Origin: an uncultured Gammaproteobacteria bacterium
GTDB taxonomy: Bacteria; Patescibacteriota; Patescibacteriia; UBA2591; UBA6264
Length of the DNA: 64,000 nucleotides
Direction of reading: 5' to 3'
NCBI GenBank assembly: GCA_964596735.1
Contig: CAZQVF010000005.1
Location: 13,328-77,327, forward strand
The position numbers and the translations under genes are program-made. Within the stretch, counting starts at the first letter, position 1. The number at the start of each line of letters is the position of its first letter. Below the pieces are notes generated by a model that made no database searches, had not been told where the DNA came from, and saw only the letters and a program-made list of their open reading frames with translations. Shown one piece after another: positions 17,465 to 30,204 of the stretch.

Positions 17465-18442
17465 TTATTCTACTAAACCTACTTTCTTTCTAAATTTATA
17501 CGTATTTCCGTGAATCAATAGTCCTTGATAAGAAATAACTGTCTGTCGTTTTGGATAATTCTTTAATCTTCTAATTATCTTTCGCTTTGTGGTTGTTCGA
17601 ATCTGTCGATAGCATGGAAAATGTATCCAGCCCAAAAAATCTAAACCCGAAGCATAAGTTCTAATACAAACCTTGTGTTGATGAAGTGTCAATTTAAGTT
17701 CTTTTTGTAAAAATTCAGTGATTCTTAACAATAAACCATTGAGATACTCTTTATTGTCCGATAAAATAACGAAATCGTCGCCATATCTAATATAATATTT
17801 CACTCGCAATTCCTGTTTTATATACATATCAAATTCGTGCATATAAACATTAACGAAAAGTTGGGAAGTGAGGTTGCCAAGGGGCAGACCTATCCCCAAA
17901 CGGCTGGAATAAAAACTAAAAACTACCCTTTCAATCAACCGAATAATTTGAGAATCGTTAATGTGTCTCTTTAATATTTTAATAAGGATTTGCTGATCAA
18001 TGTTAGCAAAAAATTTCTGAATATCGCATTTTAGAATATAACAAGTTTGAGAATTATTTTTTGATACCTTCTGGGCAAAATATCTGAATCTGTTCAAAGC
18101 GCGATGCACTCCCTTGTTTTCTCTACACGAATATACATCATAAATAAACTTTCTATCAAAATAAGGACACAGCTCCTTATAAATGAGATGATGTAATAAC
18201 CGATCACGCACCGTAGCTTTGTGAATATTTCTCGGCTTGGGGTCAGAAATATTAAAAGCCGAATATGGTCCGTGAATATAAGTAAAATTAACCAGAGACT
18301 TATAAAGATCTATTAAATTATCGGCCAGCTTTATTTGAAAAATCATCACATCTTTTTTATGTCTTTTACCACACAAAAAACGCTCCCAAGTCGCTAAGAG
18401 ATTTTCTATCTTAATAATATCAATATATTTAACTTTAAACAT
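17465..18442 (-). CDS. DGR reverse transcriptase
   Basis: RT motifs: IENLLATWERFLCGKRHKKDV N-terminus, LPLGNLTSQLFVNVYM (DGR-specific SQ motif), YIRYGDDFVIL (YxDD). ORF track starts at 18511; start at MFKVKY (18442) abuts the divergent avd ATG (CATATG). Confidence 0.9.
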   Translation of the reverse strand: MFKVKYIDIIKIENLLATWERFLCGKRHKKDVMIFQIKLADNLIDLYKSLVNFTYIHGPYSAFNISDPKPRNIHKATVRDRLLHHLIYKELCPYFDRKFIYDVYSCRENKGVHRALNRFRYFAQKVSKNNSQTCYILKCDIQKFFANIDQQILIKILKRHINDSQIIRLIERVVFSFYSSRLGIGLPLGNLTSQLFVNVYMHEFDMYIKQELRVKYYIRYGDDFVILSDNKEYLNGLLLRITEFLQKELKLTLHQHKVCIRTYASGLDFLGWIHFPCYRQIRTTTKRKIIRRLKNYPKRQTVISYQGLLIHGNTYKFRKKVGLVE

Positions 18443-18820
18443 ATGACTACAATATCTGCGCGAGTACCATTGGTGCTTGTTAGAACAAAAAGGGCTTATC
18501 AAATTTGGCACAAAAATTTAGTCAATCTTAATCGACTTGATCGCTATACTATTGGTGCTAAAATCGATGAATATTTTCTATCTTTATTGGAATTAATTTT
18601 TAAGGCCTGTTTTGCTTACGATAAATTTGAAAAACTCTCAATGGTATCACAAGCGATTGGTAAAAACGATTTATTAAAATTCTTTTTACAGATTGGTTGG
18701 GAACAAAAAACCATTAACCATAAAAATTATGGTCTTCTAATACTTTTACTTGATGAAGTTGGTCGAATGCTGGGTGGCTGGAAAAAAAATATACAAGAAA
18801 AAACTCCCGCTAGTAAGTAG
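18443..18820 (+). CDS. avd: Avd-like accessory variability determinant (four-helix-bundle / IVS family), divergent from RT
   Basis: 125 aa, basic. C-terminus LLDEVGRMLGGWKKN resembles the Bordetella phage Avd C-terminus (AEVGRILGSWI), with the helical pattern of the 23S-IVS family. Confidence 0.6.
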   Translation: MTTISARVPLVLVRTKRAYQIWHKNLVNLNRLDRYTIGAKIDEYFLSLLELIFKACFAYDKFEKLSMVSQAIGKNDLLKFFLQIGWEQKTINHKNYGLLILLLDEVGRMLGGWKKNIQEKTPASK

Positions 18821-18840
18821 CAGGAGAAAAAATTAAATAA

Positions 18841-18960
18841 GTCACAGAAGCAGAGCAGGCAGTCGTTATCATCCCAAGCGTTCTCAAAGTTGCCGAGGTT
18901 GAAATTAAAGTCATCATCCGAGTTGCGGTTGACATTCGGCACGCGGTAGTTGCCGTCAGA
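18841..18960 (-). repeat. DGR template repeat (TR)
   Basis: Minus-strand sense translates ...SDGNYRVPNVNRNSDDDFNFNLGNFENAWDDNDCLLCFCD, rich in AAC/AAT codons. Not part of a real gene. The GC-rich end CGACTGCCTGCTCTGCTTCTG is shared with the VR (IMH-like), with one non-A mismatch. Confidence 0.85.
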
Positions 18961-19194
18961 CAATGTACAGCCCGCCACCTTTTTCACTAAGGGTAACGCC
19001 AGTCGCCCTCTGTATTTTATTCTGAGCCAAAATGCTCAATAGCACGCTGCACCGACTGATTTAATTTTTTCATAAAAGGTTGCACTCATTTACTAAGCAT
19101 GCCCAGTAAATTCCTGGCAAACTCCCTTTACGAGAATTCGATGATATAAAGCCATGGCCACATATCCAATCTATTATCCAAAAATATTATACAG

Positions 19195-19238
19195 AAAAAA
19201 TACATAAAAGAAAAGGGTCCTTACATTGGTAAGAACCC
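19195..19238 (-). terminator. hairpin + U-tract downstream of the DGR target gene (terminator; possible DGR homing hairpin)
   Basis: Minus sense GGGUUCUUAC-CAAU-GUAAGGACCC forms a 10-bp stem with one G-U, followed by UUUUCUUUUAUGUAUUUUUU. Confidence 0.55.
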
Positions 19239-19289
19239 AAAGGGTCAAAAAATCCAAAGAACAGGACTAAGAAACCAAGTGCCTAAGCA

Positions 19290-19997
19290 CTAATCGCAGT
19301 CGCAGAAGCAGAGCAGGCAGTCGCTATCATCCCAAGCGTCCTCAAAGGGGCCGAGGAAGAAAATAAAGTCACCAACCGAGTAGCGGTCGACAGACGGCAC
19401 GCGGTAGCTGCCGTCAGAATCGATCCAGAGAGCCTCTTTCTCATCAAACGAGACAGACCAACGGCTCTTTGGCAACTTGTTTTTGGCAAGTTCATAGACC
19501 AGTGAAGCGCCTTGAGCGCCGGCTAAAACAGCTTTCTGAGAATACAGGAAATTTAAACAGTCTTCCGAAGTCACAGTTTCTGTGATATTAAAAACCTTTA
19601 CCTTGAACTTTCTGCCAGGCACGAGCTTTGTTGTCGCTTTGTTAAAGTGCTTATCAGTGATGTCGGAATTGTAGTAATTAAATTCCGAGCCATGCGCTGC
19701 TGCAAAGTCAGTCAAGCGCGTAGCATGGTCGTAACCCTTAGGCACAACAATGTTAAACGCATTGGCCAATTTGAAGCGCGGGTCAGGCATAAACGGTGAA
19801 AGAGCTTGCTGACGTTGTTTCTGTGTCAGATTTAAAAAACATTCATATTCTGGCAAACTCATTTGCCCTTTCTTGATCTTCTGATTGCAATCCATATGCA
19901 GACCAGCCAATTTGGCCGCTTCTGCGCCGATAGATGTCTTATCCATCATTTTCTCCTTTGATACCAAGAGTTTAATAATTGACCCCATGCCAATCAT
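19290..19997 (-). CDS. DGR target protein with C-terminal variable region
   Basis: C-terminal 40 aa (GSYRVPSVDRYSVGDFIFFLGPFEDAWDDSDCLLCFCD) are encoded by the VR. N-terminal portion has no recognised domain; start codon uncertain (several in-frame Met). Confidence 0.75.
   Translation of the reverse strand: MIGMGSIIKLLVSKEKMMDKTSIGAEAAKLAGLHMDCNQKIKKGQMSLPEYECFLNLTQKQRQQALSPFMPDPRFKLANAFNIVVPKGYDHATRLTDFAAAHGSEFNYYNSDITDKHFNKATTKLVPGRKFKVKVFNITETVTSEDCLNFLYSQKAVLAGAQGASLVYELAKNKLPKSRWSVSFDEKEALWIDSDGSYRVPSVDRYSVGDFIFFLGPFEDAWDDSDCLLCFCDCD
19299..19418 (-). repeat. DGR variable repeat (VR) at the 3' end of the target gene
   Basis: Differences from the TR occur only where the TR has A on the sense strand (AAC to AGC, GAC, TAC, TTC, CCC; GAT to GTT, GGT). 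Confidence 0.85.
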
Positions 19998-20095
19998 TTT
20001 CTCAGTATTGATAATATTATGTCATATTTTAGCCTTTTTGTCAACACTCCTATTCCAAAAGACTTAAAATTTATATTAATCTAAAATAAAAACAC

Positions 20096-20125
20096 CGCCG
20101 AGGAGAATCGAACTCCTGAGACGGA
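20096..20125 (-). pseudogene. tRNA 3'-half fragment (canonical T-arm + acceptor 3' strand, no 5' half)
   Basis: Minus sense AGGAG-TTCGATT-CTCCT then CGGCGGTG; no matching 5' acceptor strand within 80 nt. The 14-nt core CCGAGGAGAAT(C/T)GA is directly repeated at 20181-20194. Confidence 0.4.
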
Positions 20126-20201: not shown

Positions 20202-20890
20202 TTATTTTAATCCACTTTGTAATTTTAACGCGTCAATCCATCCTTTAATTCGAAAAGCTATCTTACGACCATGTACACGTAAATCAAGTGTGCCATATGG
20301 CAAAGAATTGATTGGACGTTTTCTGTTGCTCGCTTTGCTTATTTGTTTAAAAATGCGAAAACGACTTTTAGGAATATTAGTTACTCTAGCCCAAAAATTA
20401 ATGGCAGATTGCTCGCTAATATTAGCATGTATTCTAACACATACTTTTAATTTCTCTTCAGGGACTTTAATAATTTCTCGTAAAAAGCGAAGAAACAACG
20501 CAATCATATAAGGATCAGCATTAACAAAATCAACTACATACCCTTTGTTTTTTTGAGCCTCAATTTTATATCCCTCTGCCCAATAAAGAGCATTTGCAAC
20601 TAATAATAACTCATATTTTGACAACGAATGAATTTCATTAAAAGTCTCCTTCTTTATTCTCTGATTTTCAATCCAAATAGCACGTGTCCGTTGCCGATTG
20701 TTTTCAAATAACCCATGTTCTCGAGCAATTCTCGTTTTTTTTTCTAAAAGCTTTTTTGCTGACTTTGTTAGTTTTAAGTCTCTAAACCAAACGCTAAGCG
20801 AGCCCTTGGAAACACTTAAAGTACGAGCTATTTCATTGTAACTTTTACCCTTTAACCGCAACCTGAGCGCTTTTTGATATTGTGGATGCA
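20202..20890 (-). CDS. hypothetical HTH-domain protein with LAGLIDADG-like motif (possible homing-endonuclease-like protein)
   Basis: HTH segment KGKSYNEIARTLSVSKGSLSVWF; motif LLLVANALYWAEGYKIEAQK...VDFVNADPYMIALFLRFL resembles degenerate LAGLIDADG. ORF track start (20954) overlaps tRNA-Glu, so ATG at 20890 (MHPQYQ) is used. Confidence 0.35.
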
Positions 20891-20908
20891 TAATAATTAA
20901 ATATATAA

Positions 20909-20980
20909 GTAGCGCCAAGGGGAATCGAACCCCTGTTACATGGTTGAAAACCATGTGTCCTGACCACTAGACGATGGCGC
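20909..20980 (-). tRNA. tRNA-Glu (UUC)
   Basis: GGCGCCA acceptor stem (G1-U72), anticodon stem CATGG/CCATG with loop TTTTCAA (anticodon TTC), T-arm GGGGTTCGATTCCCC. Confidence 0.85.
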
Positions 20981-21019
20981 CATTATTATTTAGCGCAATC
21001 TTAGCAAAATTAAACGAAT

Positions 21020-22535: not shown

Positions 22536-24893
22536 ATGGGAAAAGCATACGAACCCAAAGAATATGAATCAAAAATATATCAACTCTGGGAAAAGAGCGA
22601 ATTTTTTAATCCTGATAAGCTGCCCGGTAAACCAAAAAAAACATACTCTATCTCTATCCCTCCACCAAATGTTACTGGATCTCTTCACCTTGGCCATGCT
22701 TTAAATAATACGATTCAGGATATTTTGACCAGATTTTATCGCATGAAGGGAAGAAAAACACTTTGGTTGCCTGGAACAGATCACGCTGGCATTGCGACAC
22801 AAAATGTTGTGGAAAAAGAATTAGCCAAACAAGGGTTAACTCGTCACCAATTAGGCAGAGAAAAATTTACTGAAAAGGCTTGGCAATGGAAAGCAAAATA
22901 TGGTGATTTAATTCTAGAACAATTAAAAAAACTTGGCTGCTCTTGTGATTGGTCTAGAACTCGCTTTACCTTAGACAAAGACTATGCAGAAGCGGTTTTA
23001 ACTGCTTTTATTAATTATCATAAAAAGGGATATATTTATCGCGGACCAAGAATTGTTAATTGGTGTCCGCGTTGCACCACAGCCATTTCTGATATTGAAA
23101 TAAAATATCAAGAAAAAAAAGGCAAACTCTGGTATTTAAAATATCCTTTTAAGGATAATCCTAATAAATTTATAGTTGTAGCAACTACTCGCCCAGAAAC
23201 TATGCTAGGAGACACAGCTGTGGCCGTAAGTCCTAAACGTGAAAAATATAAAAAGTTGATTGGAGAAAAACTAATCCTCCCCATTATGAACCGAGAAATT
23301 CCTTTGGTGTCTCACCATTTAGTTGATGCTGAGTTTGGTACAGGGGCGGTGAAAATTACTCCGGCTCATGATAAAACTGACTGGCAAATTGGTAAAGAAA
23401 ATAATTTGGAGGTGATAAACGTTATTGGGGCAGAGGGGAAAATGACCAAGGAAGCGGGAAAATATTCCGGTCTACCTGTTTTAGAAGCAAGAAAAAAGAT
23501 TATTGAAGAATTGGAAAAATTAAATCTCTTGGAAAAAATTGAAGACTATCAACATCAAATCTCTCTTTGTGATCGCTGTAGCACACCAGTTGAGCCTCAG
23601 ATTTCTACTCAGTGGTTTGTGGCTATGAAAAAATTAGCCAAACCAGCTATTAAAGTTGTAAAAAAATCAAAAATAAAAATTTCTCCTAAACGTTATAAAA
23701 AAGTGTATTTAGATTGGTTGGATAATATTGAAGATTGGTGTATCTCTCGTCAACTTTGGTGGGGCCATCGATTACCAGTTTGGTTTTGCCAAAAACAAAA
23801 AGATAAATATCTTGTCTCTATAAATCAACCTAAAAAATGTCCTTATTGTAATAAGTGTAAAATGGACCAATCTGAAGATGTGCTTGATACCTGGTTTTCT
23901 TCAGCCCTATGGCCGTTTGCTACTCTTGGCTGGCCTAAAAAAACAAAGGATTTAAAAGAATTTTACCCTACTTCTCTGCTTTCCACGGCTAGAGACATTC
24001 TTTATCTCTGGGTGGCTCGTATGGTTTTTTCTAGCTTAGAATTTTTAAAAAAAATACCGTTTGAACAAGTCTATATCCATTCCACCATTTTAACACTGGA
24101 GGGCCGACGCATGAGCAAATCATTAGGAACTGGTATTGACCCATTGGAGTTAATAAATAAATATGGAGCTGACGCAACCCGATTTGGTATAATTTACCAA
24201 ACAAATCGCGACCAACAAGCGATTCGTTTTGACGAAAGAGCTATCGTTGCCGCTCGTAATTTTATTAATAAACTTTGGAATATTAGTCGTTTTATTGCCA
24301 TACAAATTGAAACAGAGCCAGAAATAAAAATTAAAAATATTAAAACGCAAACTTTAGCTGATCAATGGATTGTTTCAGGGGTTAATAACTTAATTACTTC
24401 AGCGACAGAAAAAATTGAAAATTACGAATTTGGTGAAGCTAGTAAAGAAATTTATGATTTTATCTGGCATGATTTTGCTGATTGGTATTTAGAAATCTCA
24501 AAATTCCAAATAGCTGATTCTAGACTAAAAAAAGAGACTATTCGTAATTTAAAACTTGTTCTTTGTCTTTGTCTAAGACTGCTTCATCCTTTTACTCCTT
24601 TTGTTACGGAACAAATTTACCAACAACTTAATGCTTGTCCTGACTCCTCAGATTTATTAATGATTGCCTCTTGGCCAAGGGTAAAAAAGAATTTTATCAA
24701 CCCAAAAAGAGAAAAAGAATTTGCTAGCGTAAAAGAAATAGTTATGGAAATTAGGAATTGGAAAGTGGATAAAAAAATATCCCCAAAAGAAATAGTGGAT
24801 TATAAAATTAAGCCAGAAAACAAAAAAATCCCAGTTCAAAACGAACTTAAGGATTTAATTGAAAAATTAGGTAAAATAAAACTAGTTTTCTGA
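22536..24893 (+). CDS. valS: valyl-tRNA synthetase
   Basis: PPPNVTGSLHLGHA (HIGH region) and KMSKSLGTG (KMSKS); CP1 editing domain. ATG at 22536 (MGKAYEPKEY) is preferred over the track start at 22491, which overlaps tsaE. Confidence 0.9.
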   Translation: MGKAYEPKEYESKIYQLWEKSEFFNPDKLPGKPKKTYSISIPPPNVTGSLHLGHALNNTIQDILTRFYRMKGRKTLWLPGTDHAGIATQNVVEKELAKQGLTRHQLGREKFTEKAWQWKAKYGDLILEQLKKLGCSCDWSRTRFTLDKDYAEAVLTAFINYHKKGYIYRGPRIVNWCPRCTTAISDIEIKYQEKKGKLWYLKYPFKDNPNKFIVVATTRPETMLGDTAVAVSPKREKYKKLIGEKLILPIMNREIPLVSHHLVDAEFGTGAVKITPAHDKTDWQIGKENNLEVINVIGAEGKMTKEAGKYSGLPVLEARKKIIEELEKLNLLEKIEDYQHQISLCDRCSTPVEPQISTQWFVAMKKLAKPAIKVVKKSKIKISPKRYKKVYLDWLDNIEDWCISRQLWWGHRLPVWFCQKQKDKYLVSINQPKKCPYCNKCKMDQSEDVLDTWFSSALWPFATLGWPKKTKDLKEFYPTSLLSTARDILYLWVARMVFSSLEFLKKIPFEQVYIHSTILTLEGRRMSKSLGTGIDPLELINKYGADATRFGIIYQTNRDQQAIRFDERAIVAARNFINKLWNISRFIAIQIETEPEIKIKNIKTQTLADQWIVSGVNNLITSATEKIENYEFGEASKEIYDFIWHDFADWYLEISKFQIADSRLKKETIRNLKLVLCLCLRLLHPFTPFVTEQIYQQLNACPDSSDLLMIASWPRVKKNFINPKREKEFASVKEIVMEIRNWKVDKKISPKEIVDYKIKPENKKIPVQNELKDLIEKLGKIKLVF

Positions 24894-25328
24894 TTCTTTT
24901 GCTCTGTCTAAAATCCATTCTTCAAATTGGGATTCACTAGCAAAGCCATGATGCCAAGAAGTGTCTAAACCATAATTTATAAAAAGACGTGAAAGAATGT
25001 TCAAATCGTCAACGATAACATTCTTTTTACTTATCTTTGCTTGCATCCAGGTTTCTAATTCTTTTAGTCCATTTCTTCTTTCCTCTTGATTTTGAGAACT
25101 AGCCTCTTGAATTTTATTCCAGGCTCGGTAATAAGATCGCTCTATTTTAATATATTCTTGACAATACCGCTCTAATTCATTAACAAATTCCATAACTTGT
25201 TCCTTGTCTTCTGCCCTCGGAATGGTCTCAATGTTCTTTCTCAAGGAATTAAAACTAAACCGAGCTGCTTCAGTTTTTTGTTCTTCCGGTCTTAAAACCT
25301 CGCGTTTGTGTAAAAATTGATGTTCCAT
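24882..25328 (-). CDS. hypothetical protein
   Basis: 148 aa, charged, no motif recognised; last gene of the dnaA / ATP-cone nuclease / pilB string. Confidence 0.4.
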   Translation of the reverse strand: MEHQFLHKREVLRPEEQKTEAARFSFNSLRKNIETIPRAEDKEQVMEFVNELERYCQEYIKIERSYYRAWNKIQEASSQNQEERRNGLKELETWMQAKISKKNVIVDDLNILSRLFINYGLDTSWHHGFASESQFEEWILDRAKESEN

Positions 25329-25358
25329 ATAAATTTATTTTATTTTTATTAATATCTC

Positions 25359-27071
25359 TTATTCAGCCACACGGAAAACTTCTTCTACAGTAGTAAGTCC
25401 ATCTAAAACTTTTAAGATTCCGTCTTGAACCATACCAACCATGCCCTGGCCTTTAACTAATTCTTTCATTTTATACTCGGAAAGGTCACCTTCTAGAACT
25501 GCTTTTTCAATCTCTGGATCAATTATTAAAACCTCATAAATTCCAACTCGTCCTTTATAGCCCAGGCCCTGGCATTTTTCACAACCTTCTCCTTTATAAA
25601 ATTTAAGTTTATTCAAGTCAATTTTAATGCCTGATTTCTCTGGAATTTCAGATAAAATCTTTTTTACTCGAACTAACTTTTCAGGCTCCAAGGTTGTTTC
25701 TTTTTTACATTCTTTGCAAATTCTTCTTCCTAAACGCTGGCCAATAACTGCATTAAGTGCTGGTGCCAAAAGATAAGGCTTTGCTCCCATAGAAAGAAAT
25801 CTAGGCAAAGCCCCTACTGCATCATTTGTATGAAGAGTAGAAACTACTAAATGACCAGTCAGGGCAGCTTGAATAGCGATATCAGCTGTTTCCAAATCTC
25901 TAATTTCTCCAACCATAACCACGTCTGGATCCTGACGAAGAATTGAACGAAGACCTTTGGCAAAGGTATATTCTTTTGATTTATCAACCTGACTCTGATT
26001 AACTCCTTTTAAATGATACTCTATTGGATCTTCTAGGGTAATAATTTTTGTTTCTGGATCATTAAGCTTATTTAAGATAGCATATAAGGTGGTTGTTTTT
26101 CCTGAACCTGTTGGACCTGTGGTGATAATCATCCCATTAGGTCTTTCTATTTGTGCTTTTAGTTTTTCTTCAACATCTTTACGAAAGCCAAGATCTTCAA
26201 AGCTTAACCCAGCTACTGATGCACGAAGTAGTCTCATAACCACACTTTCACCATAAGCGGTCGGTAATGTAGAAACCCGAACATCTGTTTTTTCTTTATT
26301 TAAATAAATAGTAAATCGTCCGTCTTGTGGCCGATCTGTTACATTCATTTTAAGACTAGATAATAATTTAAGCCTTGAAATGACTTTAGGCCAAAACTTC
26401 TTGTCTATCTCAGCCACTTCAATTAAAACTCCATCTATTCTAAATCTGACTTTAATGGCTGTTTCTTCTGCTTCAATATGAATATCAGAAGCTCCTGATT
26501 GGACAGAACTGGCCATAATTAAGGTGACCATATCAGAAATTTTAACATTCTGAACCTCCTGATTTAAATCTTTAAATGTTTTTACTTTATTTTTAAAATG
26601 TTCAAAGTCCTCGGGAGATATCTCAACTCCTTTGACAATTTTGCTAACCTTAGGCAAGGCAGCATAACGCTGATGAGCAAGTTTAAAACTATGTTCGGAA
26701 ATTAAATGAAGCTCTGTTTTTACATTCCAGGCTCCTTCAATTTGCTCTCTAAGATCTGCTAAACCAGGATTTTCAACCTGGGTTGAGGCAAGTTTAACTT
26801 TTTCTTCGGTTCGATAAAAACAAACTACCTGGTGTTTTAAGGCATCTTCTTCAGAAATCAACGTTAAAGCTTCAGAAGAAATAGGAAAATCAGCTAAATT
26901 AATATAAGGAATACCTATCTGACGAGCTTGCTCAGTCGCTTTTTCTTCTAAGTCTTTAATATTAATATTTATTAACTTCTGATTCAACTTTTTTTGTTCT
27001 TCTTCTGAAGCAATGTTGGGTTTTTTAGAAGATTGACCACCTTGTCCTAATAAATCCTTTAAATCTAACAT
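25359..27071 (-). CDS. type II secretion / type IV pilus assembly ATPase (GspE/PilB family)
   Basis: Walker A GPTGSGKTTTLYA, Asp box, His box and C-terminal CxxC...CxxC zinc motif (CKECK...CEKCQGLGY). Confidence 0.85.
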   Translation of the reverse strand: MLDLKDLLGQGGQSSKKPNIASEEEQKKLNQKLININIKDLEEKATEQARQIGIPYINLADFPISSEALTLISEEDALKHQVVCFYRTEEKVKLASTQVENPGLADLREQIEGAWNVKTELHLISEHSFKLAHQRYAALPKVSKIVKGVEISPEDFEHFKNKVKTFKDLNQEVQNVKISDMVTLIMASSVQSGASDIHIEAEETAIKVRFRIDGVLIEVAEIDKKFWPKVISRLKLLSSLKMNVTDRPQDGRFTIYLNKEKTDVRVSTLPTAYGESVVMRLLRASVAGLSFEDLGFRKDVEEKLKAQIERPNGMIITTGPTGSGKTTTLYAILNKLNDPETKIITLEDPIEYHLKGVNQSQVDKSKEYTFAKGLRSILRQDPDVVMVGEIRDLETADIAIQAALTGHLVVSTLHTNDAVGALPRFLSMGAKPYLLAPALNAVIGQRLGRRICKECKKETTLEPEKLVRVKKILSEIPEKSGIKIDLNKLKFYKGEGCEKCQGLGYKGRVGIYEVLIIDPEIEKAVLEGDLSEYKMKELVKGQGMVGMVQDGILKVLDGLTTVEEVFRVAE

Positions 27072-27080
27072 AAAAACTCA

Positions 27081-27947
27081 TTAAGATATAATTGAACTAG
27101 CTTCGTTGATTAAACTAGTTAACTTTTTTCCTTTAAGCATTGTTTTTTGTTTTAAAACCTCTTTTTTTGTAGAAATGAGCTCCTGACATAAAATCATCTT
27201 CTTAGAAAAAAGAATTTCTCTTGAAGCTCGATCCAAAGATCTTAAAATGGTAATTGGATAAAGCTTTTTATTCTCGATTAAATATTCTAAACCATTTCCT
27301 TTGGGATGTTGCCATCCTAACAATCTCAAATCCTTACATTGAGCATATTTGATAGCTGAATTAGAAAACTTGGTGTTAGAAATTAACCAAGGACGATGAA
27401 ACTCTCGACCTGTACCCTGACGCCAAGCATCTTGAAGGTCTAAAAATCTCGCCCACACATAAAGAGCTTCTTTTAGTCCTGACCGTAGCCCTGGAGCATT
27501 ATGATATTTACATTCTATCATATAAGTTCTGCTGTGACTAGATTCTTTTTCATTTATAGGATCAGGTTTTTTGTATGGAGATTTAGCAATAATATCTACT
27601 TCATGTTTAACACAAACCCCTTGAATAAGTGGCGGGCACCAAGCTTGATAGCCATAGGCCTTTAATAGGCTAACTATAAATTCTTCAAAAATAAAACCAG
27701 CCGGACCCAGGCTTAACATTGCTTTTTTTAAGCTATAACGAGTAGCAACGGCAGGGTCTTTTTGTTTTAAAAGCTTTAAAATCAACCTCAATAACTCACG
27801 CGTTTCCATGCCGTTATAAACATGTTTTATTACTTCTTTAACAATACGATCTGCTAGGTCTGGGCTAGCCCCTGCCCTAAGGCAGGTACGACGTACTTTA
27901 GCGGGATTAAACTTTGCTCTTTTCCCAGAGACCTTAATAACATACAT
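27081..27947 (-). CDS. ATP-cone domain fused to PD-(D/E)xK (Mrr-like) nuclease domain
   Basis: N-terminal MYVIKVSGKRAKFNPAKVRRTCLRAGASPDLADRIVKEV is an NrdR-like ATP-cone; central ...HEVDIIAKS...YMIECKYH has D...E-x-K nuclease catalytic spacing. Confidence 0.5.
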   Translation of the reverse strand: MYVIKVSGKRAKFNPAKVRRTCLRAGASPDLADRIVKEVIKHVYNGMETRELLRLILKLLKQKDPAVATRYSLKKAMLSLGPAGFIFEEFIVSLLKAYGYQAWCPPLIQGVCVKHEVDIIAKSPYKKPDPINEKESSHSRTYMIECKYHNAPGLRSGLKEALYVWARFLDLQDAWRQGTGREFHRPWLISNTKFSNSAIKYAQCKDLRLLGWQHPKGNGLEYLIENKKLYPITILRSLDRASREILFSKKMILCQELISTKKEVLKQKTMLKGKKLTSLINEASSIIS

Positions 27948-27949
27948 AT

Positions 27950-29317
27950 TTATTGATTATATAACCTTTGTTTAATTAAATCTATTTCCTGTTTTGTGCG
28001 GCTATTTTGCTCAATCCCATCTTTTATCTTTTCATAAGCATGCATAGCTGTTGTGTGATCACGATTCCCTAATTCTTTACCAATTAAAGGAAAGGAGGCT
28101 CCGACTTCTTCCCTCATCAAATACATGGCTACCTGTCTAGGAACAACAAGTTCTCTTTTTCGAGAGAGACCAATCATTTCACTAACGTGAATACCATAAA
28201 AATTAGCTACTGTTTCAATTAATTCTTTTGCTTGAATTAATCCTTTTTTTCTTCGCGTGTCTAAACTAGCTAGAACATTTTTTACTACAGATAAATCAAG
28301 TTCTGTTCTATGAAACTCATAATAAGCAATTAATTTGTTAAGGGCTCCTTCCAGCTCTCTAACGTTGCTTTGGATATGAGTAGCCAAATATTGAATAATC
28401 TCCTCATTTAAATTACATTTTCTTTCTTGACACTTTGCCTTTAAAATAGCTAACCTTGTTTCTAAATCAGGCGGAGTAATATCAGCAATTAATCCCCATT
28501 CTAATCGTGAGATTAAACGATCTTCAAGGGCAGGAATATCTTTGGGGGTGCGATCAGAGGTGAGGACTATTTGTTGCCCATCTTGATGAAGGCTGTTAAA
28601 GGTATGAAAAAATTCTTCCTGAGTCCGTTCTTTACCGGCCATAAATTGAATATCATCAACCAAAAGGACATCTACCCCCCTATAGATTTCTTTAAATTTA
28701 TCAATCGTTCCATTTCCAATCGCCCGAATAAACTCATTAGTAAACCTTTCTGCATTAGTACAAAGAACTTTTATCTTAGAGTTCTTCTCTAAAATAGCAT
28801 GGCCAATTGCTTGTAATAAATGGGTTTTTCCTAGTCCAACTCCTCCATAAATAAAAAGCGGGTTGTATTTTTTACCCGGCTGTTTAACTATAGCCTGACA
28901 AGCGGCGTAAGCCAATTCTGAACCCTTGCCGACAACAAAATTTTTAAAAGTATAACGAACATTTAATCCATGGCCATTAGTTTCTGGAACCTTCTCTGGG
29001 ACCAGCTTATCTATATCAATAGTTTCAGGTCCAGGCTCCTTAGCTGATTTTACGGCCTCAACCTTATAAATTACTTTTTTAACCTTGTTGTCTGTAGCTC
29101 CCTGTAGGGCCTCAAGAATAGATCGATGATATTTCTTTTCTAACCAATTTTTAGAAAAATTATTTGGCACACCAACAATAACAGTTTCCCCATTATCCTG
29201 GAGTTGAGAAATATAAGTATTTTGAAACCAAGTCTTAAAATTAGCTTTAGAAAGCGATAACTCTAGCTCTGACAAAACAATATTCCAAATTTCTTGTTTA
29301 TCCACTTCTTCAACCAT
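27950..29317 (-). CDS. dnaA: chromosomal replication initiator protein DnaA
   Basis: AAA+ Walker A GGVGLGKTHLL, box VII, C-terminal DNA-binding helix-turn-helix (HTAMHAYEKI). Confidence 0.95.
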   Translation of the reverse strand: MVEEVDKQEIWNIVLSELELSLSKANFKTWFQNTYISQLQDNGETVIVGVPNNFSKNWLEKKYHRSILEALQGATDNKVKKVIYKVEAVKSAKEPGPETIDIDKLVPEKVPETNGHGLNVRYTFKNFVVGKGSELAYAACQAIVKQPGKKYNPLFIYGGVGLGKTHLLQAIGHAILEKNSKIKVLCTNAERFTNEFIRAIGNGTIDKFKEIYRGVDVLLVDDIQFMAGKERTQEEFFHTFNSLHQDGQQIVLTSDRTPKDIPALEDRLISRLEWGLIADITPPDLETRLAILKAKCQERKCNLNEEIIQYLATHIQSNVRELEGALNKLIAYYEFHRTELDLSVVKNVLASLDTRRKKGLIQAKELIETVANFYGIHVSEMIGLSRKRELVVPRQVAMYLMREEVGASFPLIGKELGNRDHTTAMHAYEKIKDGIEQNSRTKQEIDLIKQRLYNQ

Positions 29318-29503
29318 AACAAACTGTTTAAATAAATTACTTAATAATTTAGTAGATATATAATAACATTTATTAACAAAAAGACAAATTAATCAAAGTT
29401 AACAACATGGGGACAATCTGTGGACAACCTAAATCCTTGCCTTCTTGGACAAAAACTGTTATTTTAATAACAATAACTAATTATAATAAGATTTAAGATT
29501 AAT
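29318..29503. other. candidate replication origin (oriC) between dnaA and rpmF
   Basis: AT-rich 186-bp spacer with DnaA-box-like 9-mers TGTGGACAA (29419-29427), GGGGACAAT (29409-29417) and TTGGACAAA (29445-29453), immediately upstream of the dnaA start. Confidence 0.45.
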
Positions 29504-29740
29504 ATGGCCTTACCAACGCAAAAAAGATCAAAATCTCGCAAAAGGGTTAAACAGTATAAAAATCGCTTAAAAAAGAAAATTTTATCAACTTGTCCAAAAT
29601 GCAAAAAACCAGTTCTCCCTCATCACGCTTGTCATTTCTGCGGTATTTATATAAATAAAGAAATTATTAACCCGAAAAAAGATAAGAAAGAAAGGAAAAA
29701 AGAAAAAGAAAAAAAAGAAAAAGAATCAACAAAAAAATAA
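29504..29740 (+). CDS. rpmF: 50S ribosomal protein L32 with lysine-rich C-terminal tail
   Basis: MALPTQKRSKSRKR...CPKCKKPVLPHHACHFCGIY L32 zinc-ribbon core. Confidence 0.8.
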   Translation: MALPTQKRSKSRKRVKQYKNRLKKKILSTCPKCKKPVLPHHACHFCGIYINKEIINPKKDKKERKKEKEKKEKESTKK

Positions 29741-29754
29741 AATAATTTAATTTT

Positions 29755-30204
29755 ATGTCTCAAAGGCATTTAGCGAGAACAATTGCTGTCCAAACATTAG
29801 CCGAATGGGATTTTAATCGATCTATTCTTAAAAAAGAATCTGAAATTAAAAAAATTCTTGAACGCCACTTAAAAGAATCTACGTTACCAGAATTTGAAGG
29901 AAAAGAATTTACTGAAAAACTAGTTAAAGGAGTTTCTGATGGATTTCTAAAAATTAATGCATATATTAAAAAATATGCTCCCCAATGGCCCATTGAACAA
30001 ATAACTCTAATTGATAGAAATATTCTTCGACTGGGAATTTTTGAACTTATCTTTTTTACAGAAACTCCTCCGAAAGTAGCAATAAATGAAGCAATTGAAA
30101 TAGCCAAGGCTTTTGGTGGCGGAACCTCTGGTAAATTTATTAACGGTGTTCTGGGAGCAATCTATGAAGATATAAAGAAACAGAAACCTAAAAACAAAAA
30201 ATGA
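29755..30204 (+). CDS. nusB: transcription antitermination factor NusB
   Basis: [17 protein letters not shown]...[11 protein letters not shown] NusB fold signature. Confidence 0.85.

Follow-up and report, generated by a model that had tools for sequence, protein, structure and literature searches.

AF1548 from Archaeoglobus fulgidus (PDB 1Y88; Pfam Mrr_cat and AF1548-like_C) is itself a structural-genomics entry labelled 'protein of unknown function', in which D38, E51 and K53 were predicted to be catalytic (PMC1821046). ATP-cones are found in NrdR and as activity-site cones in RNR (NrdA, NrdD, NrdB), where they share one fold and an N-terminal phosphate-binding motif; they work via nucleotide-dependent oligomerisation (NrdR preprint 10.1101/2025.03.28.645925; RNR review PMC4390871). 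In NrdR, a tyrosine discriminates ATP from dATP (10.1101/2025.03.28.645925). Card1, Can2 and Cdn1 of type III CRISPR systems are activated by cyclic oligoadenylates through a CARF sensor, and Mrr, MspJI and AspBHI carry an SRA or winged-helix modification reader. No functional study of an ATP-cone fused to a nuclease was found in the searched literature on AF1548 and ATP-cone/nuclease architectures, and biochemical data were found for no member of the family described here.

The window (the whole 64-kb stretch of DNA that was analysed) contains a 288-aa ORF with three domains: an ATP-cone, an AF1548/Mrr-like PD-(D/E)xK nuclease and a helix-hairpin-helix (HhH)-like C-terminal domain (Table 1). 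A sequence-only reading had placed this ORF immediately after dnaA and co-oriented with a PilB/GspE ATPase, and this arrangement was confirmed, with all genes on the minus strand. The dnaA stop codon lies at 27950-27952, leaving a 2-nt gap to the ORF start, and 9 nt separate the ORF stop from the PilB/GspE-type ATPase gene directly downstream. The last ORF of the string, of 148 aa, had no Pfam or PADLOC match; its cluster (c35) was found after pilB in loci L009, L010 and L013. No terminator-like site was found in the dnaA/ORF/pilB string within 24700-29800. The nuclease gene is probably co-transcribed with dnaA and, in this Patescibacteria lineage, probably with the PilB-type ATPase as well. 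A replication origin beside dnaA was considered and rejected, as no DnaA-box cluster was present there and the GC skew turned approximately 30 kb away. The ORF region showed no GC anomaly, no notable flanking or inverted repeats and no mobile-element genes, and a search with Rfam returned no element except a distant tRNA. The earlier statement that no RNR gene is nearby held for the 64-kb window: tblastn searches for NrdJ, NrdD, NrdR, thioredoxin reductase, an AMP-phosphorylase-like protein and PRPP-synthetase detected none of these genes. The 288-aa protein matched no NCBIfam model, and 15 metagenome contigs encoded a protein identical to it.

Table 1. Features of the dnaA/nuclease/pilB string and of the 288-aa protein, with positions in the window.
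Feature	Position	Strand	Support or remark
ORF, 288 aa, ATG to stop	27081..27947	-	ORF list, Pfam, PDB 1Y88 match E=8.4e-36
dnaA	27950..29317	-	directly upstream of the ORF; DnaA_N, Bac_DnaA, Bac_DnaA_C (Pfam)
PilB/GspE-type secretion/pilus ATPase (MshEN + T2SSE)	25359..27071	-	T2SSE E=9e-125, MshEN E=4e-8
148-aa ORF, last of the co-oriented string	24882..25328	-	cluster c35, after pilB in some relatives
ATP-cone, aa 1-80, beta-hairpin lid and four helices	27708..27947	-	
Cone N-terminal motif K5-x-S7-G8-x4-F13-x3-K17	27897..27935	-	invariant in 36 homologues
Linker L80-G81-P82-A83-G84-F85, cone to first nuclease helix	27693..27710	-	near-invariant
PD-(D/E)xK (Mrr/AF1548-type) nuclease core, aa 86-225	27273..27692	-	
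Predicted catalytic D118 (= AF1548 D38)	27594..27596	-	152/152 representatives; codon atc, reverse complement GAT
Predicted catalytic E145-C146-K147 (= AF1548 E51-x-K53)	27507..27515	-	E145 151/152, K147 152/152
AF1548-like_C domain, aa 230-287, HhH-type	27087..27260	-	PF22357

The N-terminal domain matched the ATP-cone family PF03477 over aa 1-73 (E=2.4e-8; 34.8 bits against a gathering score of 25.8; profile positions 1-81 of 88). The ATP-cone proposed by the sequence-only reading was therefore correct in identity, although the domain spans about 80 aa rather than the 90 or so suggested. Its fold, four helices forming a cone that is capped by a short beta-hairpin lid, is that of ATP-cones and superposed on NrdR cones at 1.7-2.0 A. 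The N-terminal motif aligned with the phosphate-binding motif VxK[KR][DS]G..F..K[IL] of NrdR, NrdD and NrdA cones. Among the 149 representatives that covered it, K5 was retained in 145, G8 in 144, F or Y at position 13 in 147 and K17 in 146 (97-99% each), and the exact K/G/F/K combination occurred in 120. The residue after the motif lysine is [KR] in the aligned NrdR, NrdD and NrdA cones, whereas most family members have A, V or S, and no residue of the family was matched to the NrdR tyrosine that separates ATP from dATP. The linker carries a near-invariant GPxG, with G81 conserved in 150, P82 in 149 and G84 in all of 152 representatives, and may act as an allosteric hinge between cone and nuclease.

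The call of a PD-(D/E)xK core also stood: the quoted motifs VDIIAKS (aa 117-123) and YMIECKYH (aa 142-149) were present, and both halves of the protein were supported by fold and sequence comparisons. The core had the expected alpha-beta-beta-beta-alpha-beta fold, with a variable, low-confidence insertion at approximately aa 124-140; the part behind the cone thus has a nuclease fold and not some other one. PF04471 (Mrr_cat) matched aa 87-209 with E=7.8e-4 and 20.0 bits, just below its gathering score of 21, and a precomputed PF04471 match was found on many close homologues. A phmmer search against PDB returned 1Y88 (AF1548) with E=8.4e-36 over aa 86-287, and D38, E51 and K53 of AF1548 aligned with D118, E145 and K147 of the 288-aa protein. 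The codons of E145-C-K147, read directly, were tttacattc (reverse complement GAATGTAAA). A complete D118/E145/K147 triad was seen in 151 of the 152 representatives (31-60% identity), and E88 (acidic, in the first nuclease helix), D118, K147 and D170 were each present in all 152. Judged from these alignments, the cone motif and the predicted catalytic site are both under strict purifying selection. A C2H2-like metal site formed by C112, H115, C146 and H149 was considered and dropped, because about 20% of the representatives have A, V, T or M instead of C146, and three aligned homologues have N.

The two-part description given earlier, correct for cone and nuclease, had missed a third domain. 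PF22357 (AF1548-like_C) matched aa 230-287 with E=1.4e-9 and 38.4 bits, against a gathering score of 23.9, and a profile of this domain matched 1Y88 at E=4.8e-13. Its fold resembles the N-terminal domains of RAD51 paralogues (RAD51-N) and NusA AR2. The protein is thus homologous to AF1548 across the nuclease core and the C-terminal helical domain, and differs from the crystallised AF1548 chain, which starts at the nuclease domain after an expression tag, in having an ATP-cone. It resembles NrdR and RNR in carrying the cone ahead of an effector that works or is regulated through oligomerisation, presumably so in this family too, and NrdR or RNR genes lie next to the genes of some homologues. 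However, the effector is a PD-(D/E)xK nuclease (predicted to be catalytic) with an HhH domain, in place of the Zn-ribbon of NrdR or the reductase barrel of RNR. The four-cysteine Zn-ribbon that precedes the cone in NrdR is absent here: the cone begins at residue 1, and PF22811 gave no match; the NrdR proteins adjoining homologues do carry it. With Card1 and Can2, only the nuclease cores superposed; the protein has no CARF or SAVED domain, and its sensor is the ATP-cone. The likeness to Card1, Can2 and Cdn1 is an analogy of logic rather than membership, and no CRISPR or defence context was found among the neighbours of homologues. Compared with Mrr, MspJI and AspBHI, an ATP-cone and an HhH domain stand in place of the modification reader, and the family differs from restriction enzymes in conservation, inheritance pattern and neighbourhoods.

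The three-domain family was found in at least 572 species genomes and at least 406 strong 50%-identity clusters. Carriers include Patescibacteria, DPANN and other archaea, Bacteroidota, Actinomycetota MAGs and one Chlamydiota plasmid. The architecture is fixed: the best 150 of 1101 cluster representatives were almost all 263-295 aa long and matched end to end, and the ATP-cone was present in at least 98% of family representatives. The gene is one member of an already catalogued family and not a unique defence invention. The family tree largely tracks taxonomy. It occurs in at least 572 of 185,579 species (a lower bound); in occupying such a small fraction it is unlike a core housekeeping gene.

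Gene neighbourhoods were compared in 76 homologue loci, and all counts given for them are raw, ignore kinship and stand without a measured background. The gene was not consistently adjacent to RNR: an RNR or NrdR gene lay within 7 genes on either side in 7 of the 76 loci, with NrdR and a class II RNR immediately downstream in three (archaeal), a class II RNR 6 genes upstream in one, and NrdD within 1-3 genes in three. A thioredoxin-reductase-like gene was found within 1-5 genes in 11 loci, and an AMP/thymidine-phosphorylase-like gene within 1-4 genes in eight. Overall, nucleotide-metabolism neighbours were observed in 24 of 76 loci from at least eight separate clades of the family tree (raw, kinship ignored), and about two thirds of the loci had none. 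A tight four-gene module recurred in Bacteroidia loci and on Pontibacter and Criblamydia plasmids (NCBI annotation), consisting of the family member, a beta-CASP MBL hydrolase, a thymidine-phosphorylase-family protein and a ribose-phosphate pyrophosphokinase. In Bradyrhizobium, low-oxygen conditions induce the last three members of this module (PMC6515984). The RNR/NrdR minority, together with the thioredoxin-reductase and AMP-phosphorylase/PRPP-synthetase neighbours, forms a nucleotide-metabolism theme that explains the cone better than defence does. For this locus the metabolic link is carried over from distant relatives, since genes for RNR or salvage are absent from the 64-kb window.

The order dnaA, family member, pilB was restricted to one Patescibacteria clade (nine loci, with dnaA in view in eight), and genes for L32, NusB, RNase III, ValRS and TsaE were also conserved around these nine loci. 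The adjacency is thus a feature of synteny and not a property of the family, and the idea that family members in general work together with dnaA or pilB was rejected because the arrangement is limited to nine closely syntenic Patescibacteria loci. The Pfam families found among immediate neighbours were housekeeping, metabolic or transport families. When the 149 immediate neighbours of the 76 homologues were searched with PADLOC, no defence family recurred, the matches being singletons or generic helicase/HTH hits. Four Csa3-like matches probably correspond to the ArsR-type HTH_5 regulators, of which these neighbours likewise include four. PADLOC gave no match for the conserved neighbours c39, c4, c12 and c35.

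The reading that we favour, at a probability of roughly 0.5, is an adenine-nucleotide-gated DNA endonuclease tied to the nucleotide-pool economy, chromosomal and mostly vertically inherited, and not an anti-phage effector. Gating of the nuclease by adenine nucleotides, as proposed in the sequence-only reading, is plausible and fits the near-invariant cone motif and triad in 152 diverse representatives. We infer nucleotide binding, gating, DNA as the substrate and the physiological role as follows. The HhH domain and the nuclease core would bind DNA, and a site formed by E88, D118, E145 and K147 would cut phosphodiester bonds in a metal-dependent manner. The cone would bind adenine nucleotides (ATP and/or dATP), and this binding may shift the oligomeric or conformational state and so turn the nuclease on or off, as in RNR and NrdR. 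Such an enzyme would make DNA cleavage or turnover respond to how the nucleotide pool stands, whether in dNTP supply, nucleotide salvage or catabolism. A bolder proposal is tentative and rather doubtful: the family may be the first known ATP-cone-controlled nuclease, a DNA endonuclease switched by ATP/dATP or by energy charge that feeds DNA into salvage or catabolism. It could act upstream of the beta-CASP exonuclease and the AMP-phosphorylase-like and PRPP-synthetase-like neighbours in Bacteroidota and Chlamydiota, whereas in DPANN archaea it could work side by side with RNR, NrdR and thioredoxin reductase. In genome-reduced Patescibacteria, co-transcription with dnaA and PilB could link the breakdown of DNA, whether acquired or the cell's own, to the initiation of replication.

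The same fold could serve a structure-specific DNA repair or recombination nuclease with a role like that of Hjc or NucS, in which the cone would limit cleavage to periods in which repair synthesis or the restart of replication can draw on dNTPs or ATP, and the position after dnaA would reflect a replication-linked role. However, no repair or recombination gene recurred beside the homologues, and the dnaA adjacency is confined to the single syntenic clade. The structural likeness to such enzymes is that of the PD-(D/E)xK fold in general, to which modification-dependent restriction enzymes are just as similar, and the JGI name is an automatic label; we consider a repair role unlikely. Under a defence role, as put forward in the sequence-only reading, the protein would be an Mrr-like (type IV-like) nuclease acting alone, or one of abortive infection, that is freed when infection disturbs ATP or dATP levels. 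Among characterised structures, the nuclease core came closest to the modification-dependent restriction enzymes AspBHI and MspJI and to the ligand-activated CRISPR ancillary nucleases Can2, Card1 and Cdn1. The species distribution is patchy, with apparent inter-domain transfers, and some MAGs carry two copies (L029/L033 and L074/L084), as might be expected of a defence gene. By contrast, the 288-aa protein matched no PADLOC family at E<=1, no defence family recurred among the 149 immediate neighbours of homologues, and tblastn detected the family in 0 of 50,697 phage records and 2 of 72,556 plasmids. The gene lies in a conserved housekeeping synteny block without the GC anomaly, flanking repeats or mobile-element genes of an island, and no modification-reading domain (SRA, Mrr_N winged helix or similar) was detected. 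Mean column identity was 53% across bacterial and archaeal homologues, which was judged high for a defence nuclease, and the agreement of the family tree with taxonomy also argues against this role. The defence proposal thus found no backing at this locus or around its relatives, and an anti-phage effector is improbable.

A further alternative takes the protein as a nucleotide-sensing DNA-binding regulator, an NrdR analogue whose nuclease fold and HhH domain would be used for binding only, with nucleotide-metabolism genes repressed or activated by the dATP/ATP ratio. An ATP-cone joined to a DNA-binding module follows the logic of NrdR, and RNR, NrdR or thioredoxin-reductase neighbours were present in 17 of 76 loci. 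NrdR has been described as restricted to bacteria (10.1101/2025.03.28.645925), and much of the cone-nuclease family is archaeal. However, the triad and the accessory acidic residues were intact in 151 of 152 representatives, which is not expected of a binding-only domain. In three archaeal loci the gene adjoins a bona fide NrdR, showing that it does not replace NrdR there. The 288-aa protein has neither a Zn-ribbon nor a wHTH, and the 64-kb window has no RNR gene. A purely regulatory role is improbable.

The nucleotide-pool reading joins a sensor that has been studied experimentally in RNR and NrdR, where the dATP/ATP ratio sets the oligomeric state, to an intact nuclease. If the cone gates cleavage, the family would represent a new output class for ATP-cone signalling and would connect DNA integrity or turnover directly, at the molecular level, with nucleotide-pool status. 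Hundreds of lineages of bacteria and archaea carry the fusion, and many of these are CPR bacteria and DPANN archaea with reduced genomes. Flavobacterium sp. XS2P12 and Pontibacter actiniarum are cultivable carriers, so that experiments are feasible. The recurrent neighbours give testable pathway hypotheses, in which the link would be to the salvage or dormancy metabolism of organisms that are difficult to work with.

The product of the ORF that follows dnaA (X) had been read from sequence alone as a fusion of an ATP-cone and a PD-(D/E)xK nuclease, and both domains proved real by Pfam, PDB sequence search and fold comparison of the two parts. Pfam placed ATP-cone at aa 1-73 (34.8 bits; gathering score 25.8), Mrr_cat at aa 87-209 (20.0 bits; gathering score 21) and AF1548-like_C at aa 230-287 (38.4 bits; gathering score 23.9). 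The C-terminal domain, missed by that reading, is of helix-hairpin-helix type and probably contacts DNA; its profile also picked up NusA AR2 (E about 0.01) and RAD51B (E about 0.4). The one strong PDB sequence match was 1Y88, 'hypothetical protein AF1548', over aa 86-287 (E=8.4e-36). An AlphaFold2 model with 36 homologues as input was confident (pLDDT 91.4, pTM 0.83), its weaker part being only a variable insertion at about aa 124-140, and Foldseek with this model returned 1Y88 at E=5e-16. Fold comparison gave AspBHI 12.1, NucS 11.9, MspJI 9.9, FokI 9.9, Can2 9.1, Card1 7.9 and Hjc 6.8 for the nuclease core, and NrdR 10.6 and 10.2, the NrdB cone 10.4 and NrdD 9.5 for the cone. By sequence and structure, X is an AF1548-like family member, and by profile and fold its cone is a bona fide ATP-cone.

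AF1548 residues D38/E51/K53, predicted to be catalytic by Yooseph et al. (PMC1821046), correspond to D118 and E145-C-K147 of X, whose codons were checked in the DNA. Among 36 homologues (47-75% identity; mean column identity 53%), the invariant residues were K5, S7, G8, F13 and K17 in the cone, G81, P82 and G84 in the linker, and E88, H115, E116, D118, E145, K147, H149, D170, N191, K193 and W212 in the nuclease. The invariant Gly-Pro-x-Gly linker leads straight into the helix bearing the predicted catalytic E88. Among 152 representatives of 50%-identity clusters (31-60% identity to X), the D/E/K triad was whole in 151, and E88, D118, K147, D170 and W212 were each present in all 152; in the 149 that covered the N-terminus, K5 was kept in 145, G8 in 144, F/Y13 in 147 and K17 in 146. 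The cone motif lined up with VxK[KR][DS]G..F..K[IL] of NrdR, NrdD and Aquifex NrdA, whereas the residue after the first lysine was mostly A, V or S in the family and [KR] in those proteins. This near-invariance in both sets shows that sensor and active site are under strict purifying selection, and it speaks against decay of the cone as well as against retention of a nuclease fold for DNA binding alone.

The tight string of dnaA, X and a PilB/GspE-type ATPase gene described earlier was confirmed, with all three on one strand, 2 nt between the dnaA stop codon and the ATG of X and 9 nt between the stop of X and the ATPase gene. Because 24700-29800 contained no terminator-like site, and promoter-like matches there only equalled the shuffled expectation, the simplest reading of these genes and the following 148-aa ORF is a single transcription unit. 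Opposite X there was no ORF of 60 aa or more, and neither flanking repeats nor nearby Rfam matches were found. GC content was uniform across the window (0.30-0.39; 0.344 at 26-28 kb), and the identical protein occurred on 15 metagenome contigs with unchanged neighbours.

Features of the X locus and of the retroelement in the window
Feature	Position	Strand	Remarks
X	27081-27947	-	single ATG-initiated ORF, 288 aa
dnaA, upstream of X	27950-29317	-	Pfam DnaA_N, Bac_DnaA, Bac_DnaA_C
PilB/GspE-type ATPase, downstream of X	25359-27071	-	570 aa, MshEN+T2SSE
148-aa ORF, after the ATPase gene	24882-25328	-	no family match
Reverse transcriptase ORF (retroelement)	17465-18511	-	Pfam label from identical contig
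bAvd ORF (retroelement)	18443-18820	+	Pfam label from identical contig
Template repeat, 121 nt	18840-18960		matches variable repeat at 88% identity
Variable repeat	19298-19418		at 3' end of ORF 19290-19997 (-)

The gene expected after dnaA is dnaN; here the two following genes were X and pilB. No DnaA-box cluster was found beside dnaA. Cumulative GC skew over window 1-64000 fell steadily to about 60 kb and then rose, and genes changed from minus-strand to plus-strand orientation near 58.7-59.2 kb, so the skew minimum lies about 30 kb from dnaA. Positions 17465-19997 contained an apparently active diversity-generating retroelement; the mismatches between its repeats all fell at adenines of the template copy. 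A 46-nt direct repeat (76% identity) lay at 20073-20118 and 20890-20935, one copy overlapping the 3' part of a tRNA-Glu (20909-20981, minus strand) and the other about 0.8 kb away, where no tRNA was called; this repeat could be the scar of an old integration next to the retroelement region. One metagenome copy of the region (L004, 4611-7041) had its ValRS gene called as two pieces, of 290 aa (tRNA-synthetase domains) and 509 aa (no family match), which may reflect a frameshift or an assembly error.

A word-indexed search returned 1797 homologues, and an exhaustive search 1101 cluster representatives at E≤1e-3 and 406 at E≤1e-30; the best 150 of the 1101 were nearly all 263-295 aa long and matched end to end. 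Relatives were present in at least 572 species genomes. Archaeal carriers were Aenigmarchaeota, Nanoarchaeota, Woesearchaeota, Pacearchaeota, Micrarchaeota, Undinarchaeota, Altiarchaeota, Hadarchaeota, Bathyarchaeia, Nitrosopumilaceae, Thermofilaceae and Hydrothermarchaeota; bacterial carriers were Patescibacteria including Saccharibacteria, Actinomycetota MAGs, Bacteroidia (Flavobacterium, Chitinophagaceae, Ferruginibacter) and Kapaibacterium. When 70 members were placed in a neighbour-joining tree, the branching mostly tracked taxonomy, with Bacteroidia, Actinomycetota, Saccharibacteria/Patescibacteria, Hadarchaeota and Aenigmarchaeota clades recovered; the positions of a few members suggest that CPR bacteria and DPANN archaea have exchanged the gene. 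Two MAGs carried double copies, Hadarchaeota CAYSRF01 (L029/L033) and Bacteroidia JAURXZ01 (L074/L084); the latter had most of the surrounding operon at both loci, with the P-type ATPase at L084 swapped for a different, shorter gene.

For gene neighbourhoods, ORFs were called in 80 loci, the 1065 proteins were clustered, and recurrent clusters and all immediate neighbours were annotated. The dnaA-X-pilB order is lineage synteny and not a family trait, since it was confined to nine close Patescibacteria loci (47-74% identity to X) in which L32, NusB, RNase III, ValRS and TsaE were syntenic too. Elsewhere, NrdR and class II RNR lay directly downstream (L014, L046, L065), class II RNR six genes upstream (L057), NrdD 1-3 genes away (L025, L022, L069), a thioredoxin-reductase-type flavoprotein 1-5 genes away (11 loci), and an AMP/thymidine-phosphorylase-like protein of about 500 aa 1-4 genes away (8 loci; Altiarchaeota, Bathyarchaeia, Nitrosopumilaceae, Bacteroidia). 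RNR, NrdR, thioredoxin-reductase or AMP-phosphorylase-like genes fell within ±7 genes in 24 of 76 loci from at least 8 separate clades, a raw count that ignores kinship and has no measured background, suggestive of nucleotide metabolism through guilt by association. The three loci with NrdR were from DPANN-type archaeal MAGs, where it was bona fide (Zn-ribbon plus ATP-cone) and followed by class II RNR; NrdR has been described as exclusive to bacteria (preprint 10.1101/2025.03.28.645925).

A tight cross-phylum module joined the ATP-cone nuclease to a beta-CASP MBL hydrolase, a thymidine/AMP-phosphorylase-family protein and a ribose-phosphate pyrophosphokinase, often with an ArsR regulator and P-type ATPase alongside. 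It occurred in Bacteroidia (L072-L075, L084), as an operon of overlapping genes (ArsR regulator, family member, usually P-type ATPase, hydrolase, phosphorylase, PRPP synthetase), and, by NCBI annotation, on plasmids of Pontibacter actiniarum (L087, NZ_CP021236) and Criblamydia sequanensis (L088, NZ_LK031773). On the Criblamydia plasmid the module is set among genes for phosphoketolase, glycogen phosphorylase and acetate kinase. In Bradyrhizobium diazoefficiens, low oxygen induces the MBL, PRPP-synthetase and phosphorylase trio (PMC6515984).

The suggestion that X is a defence effector did not hold up well and is improbable. PADLOC models did not match the protein, the survey for defence-island enrichment revealed no recurring defence family among 149 immediate neighbours (matches were singletons or generic helicase/HTH), and by tblastn none of 50,697 phage records and only two of 72,556 plasmids gave a match. 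In conservation and inheritance the family resembles a metabolic or housekeeping accessory gene more than a fast-evolving immune nuclease; counted against a purely housekeeping view were carriage by well under 1% of scanned species genomes (a lower bound) and the two MAGs with two copies. X is not a CARF nuclease, and the features that define type IV restriction enzymes are missing from it. By analogy it would work like the ligand-sensor-plus-nuclease effectors Card1 and Can2 and like the cone-regulated RNR and NrdR. A non-catalytic NrdR-like regulator, which would share the cone fold, is very unlikely: X has no Zn-ribbon and is therefore not NrdR, and its active site is conserved with its sensor. 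A repair or recombination nuclease is unlikely.

The architecture is already catalogued in databases, with members called 'ATP cone domain-containing protein' or 'restriction endonuclease' by NCBI. The literature searched yielded no paper on the fusion, and no study of its function or of the idea that a cone could gate a nuclease; an earlier mention in subscription literature is possible. Aravind, Wolf and Koonin reportedly stressed the mobility of the domain in their original ATP-cone description (2000).

X joins a largely intact cone motif, through the Gly-Pro-x-Gly linker, to an intact PD-(D/E)xK site and a C-terminal domain of the DNA-binding helix-hairpin-helix type. The cone of RNRs and NrdR turns ATP versus dATP occupancy into different active or inactive oligomers (PMC4390871; preprint 10.1101/2025.03.28.645925). 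By analogy with these proteins, adenine nucleotide bound by the cone of X would fix an oligomeric or conformational state, and this state would control DNA cleavage. We give a probability of about 0.5 to X being an adenine-nucleotide-gated DNA cleavage enzyme; within this reading, the gene neighbourhoods best support a role in salvage or catabolism, and the physiological task of the enzyme would be to couple the cleavage or turnover of DNA with the nucleotide pool.
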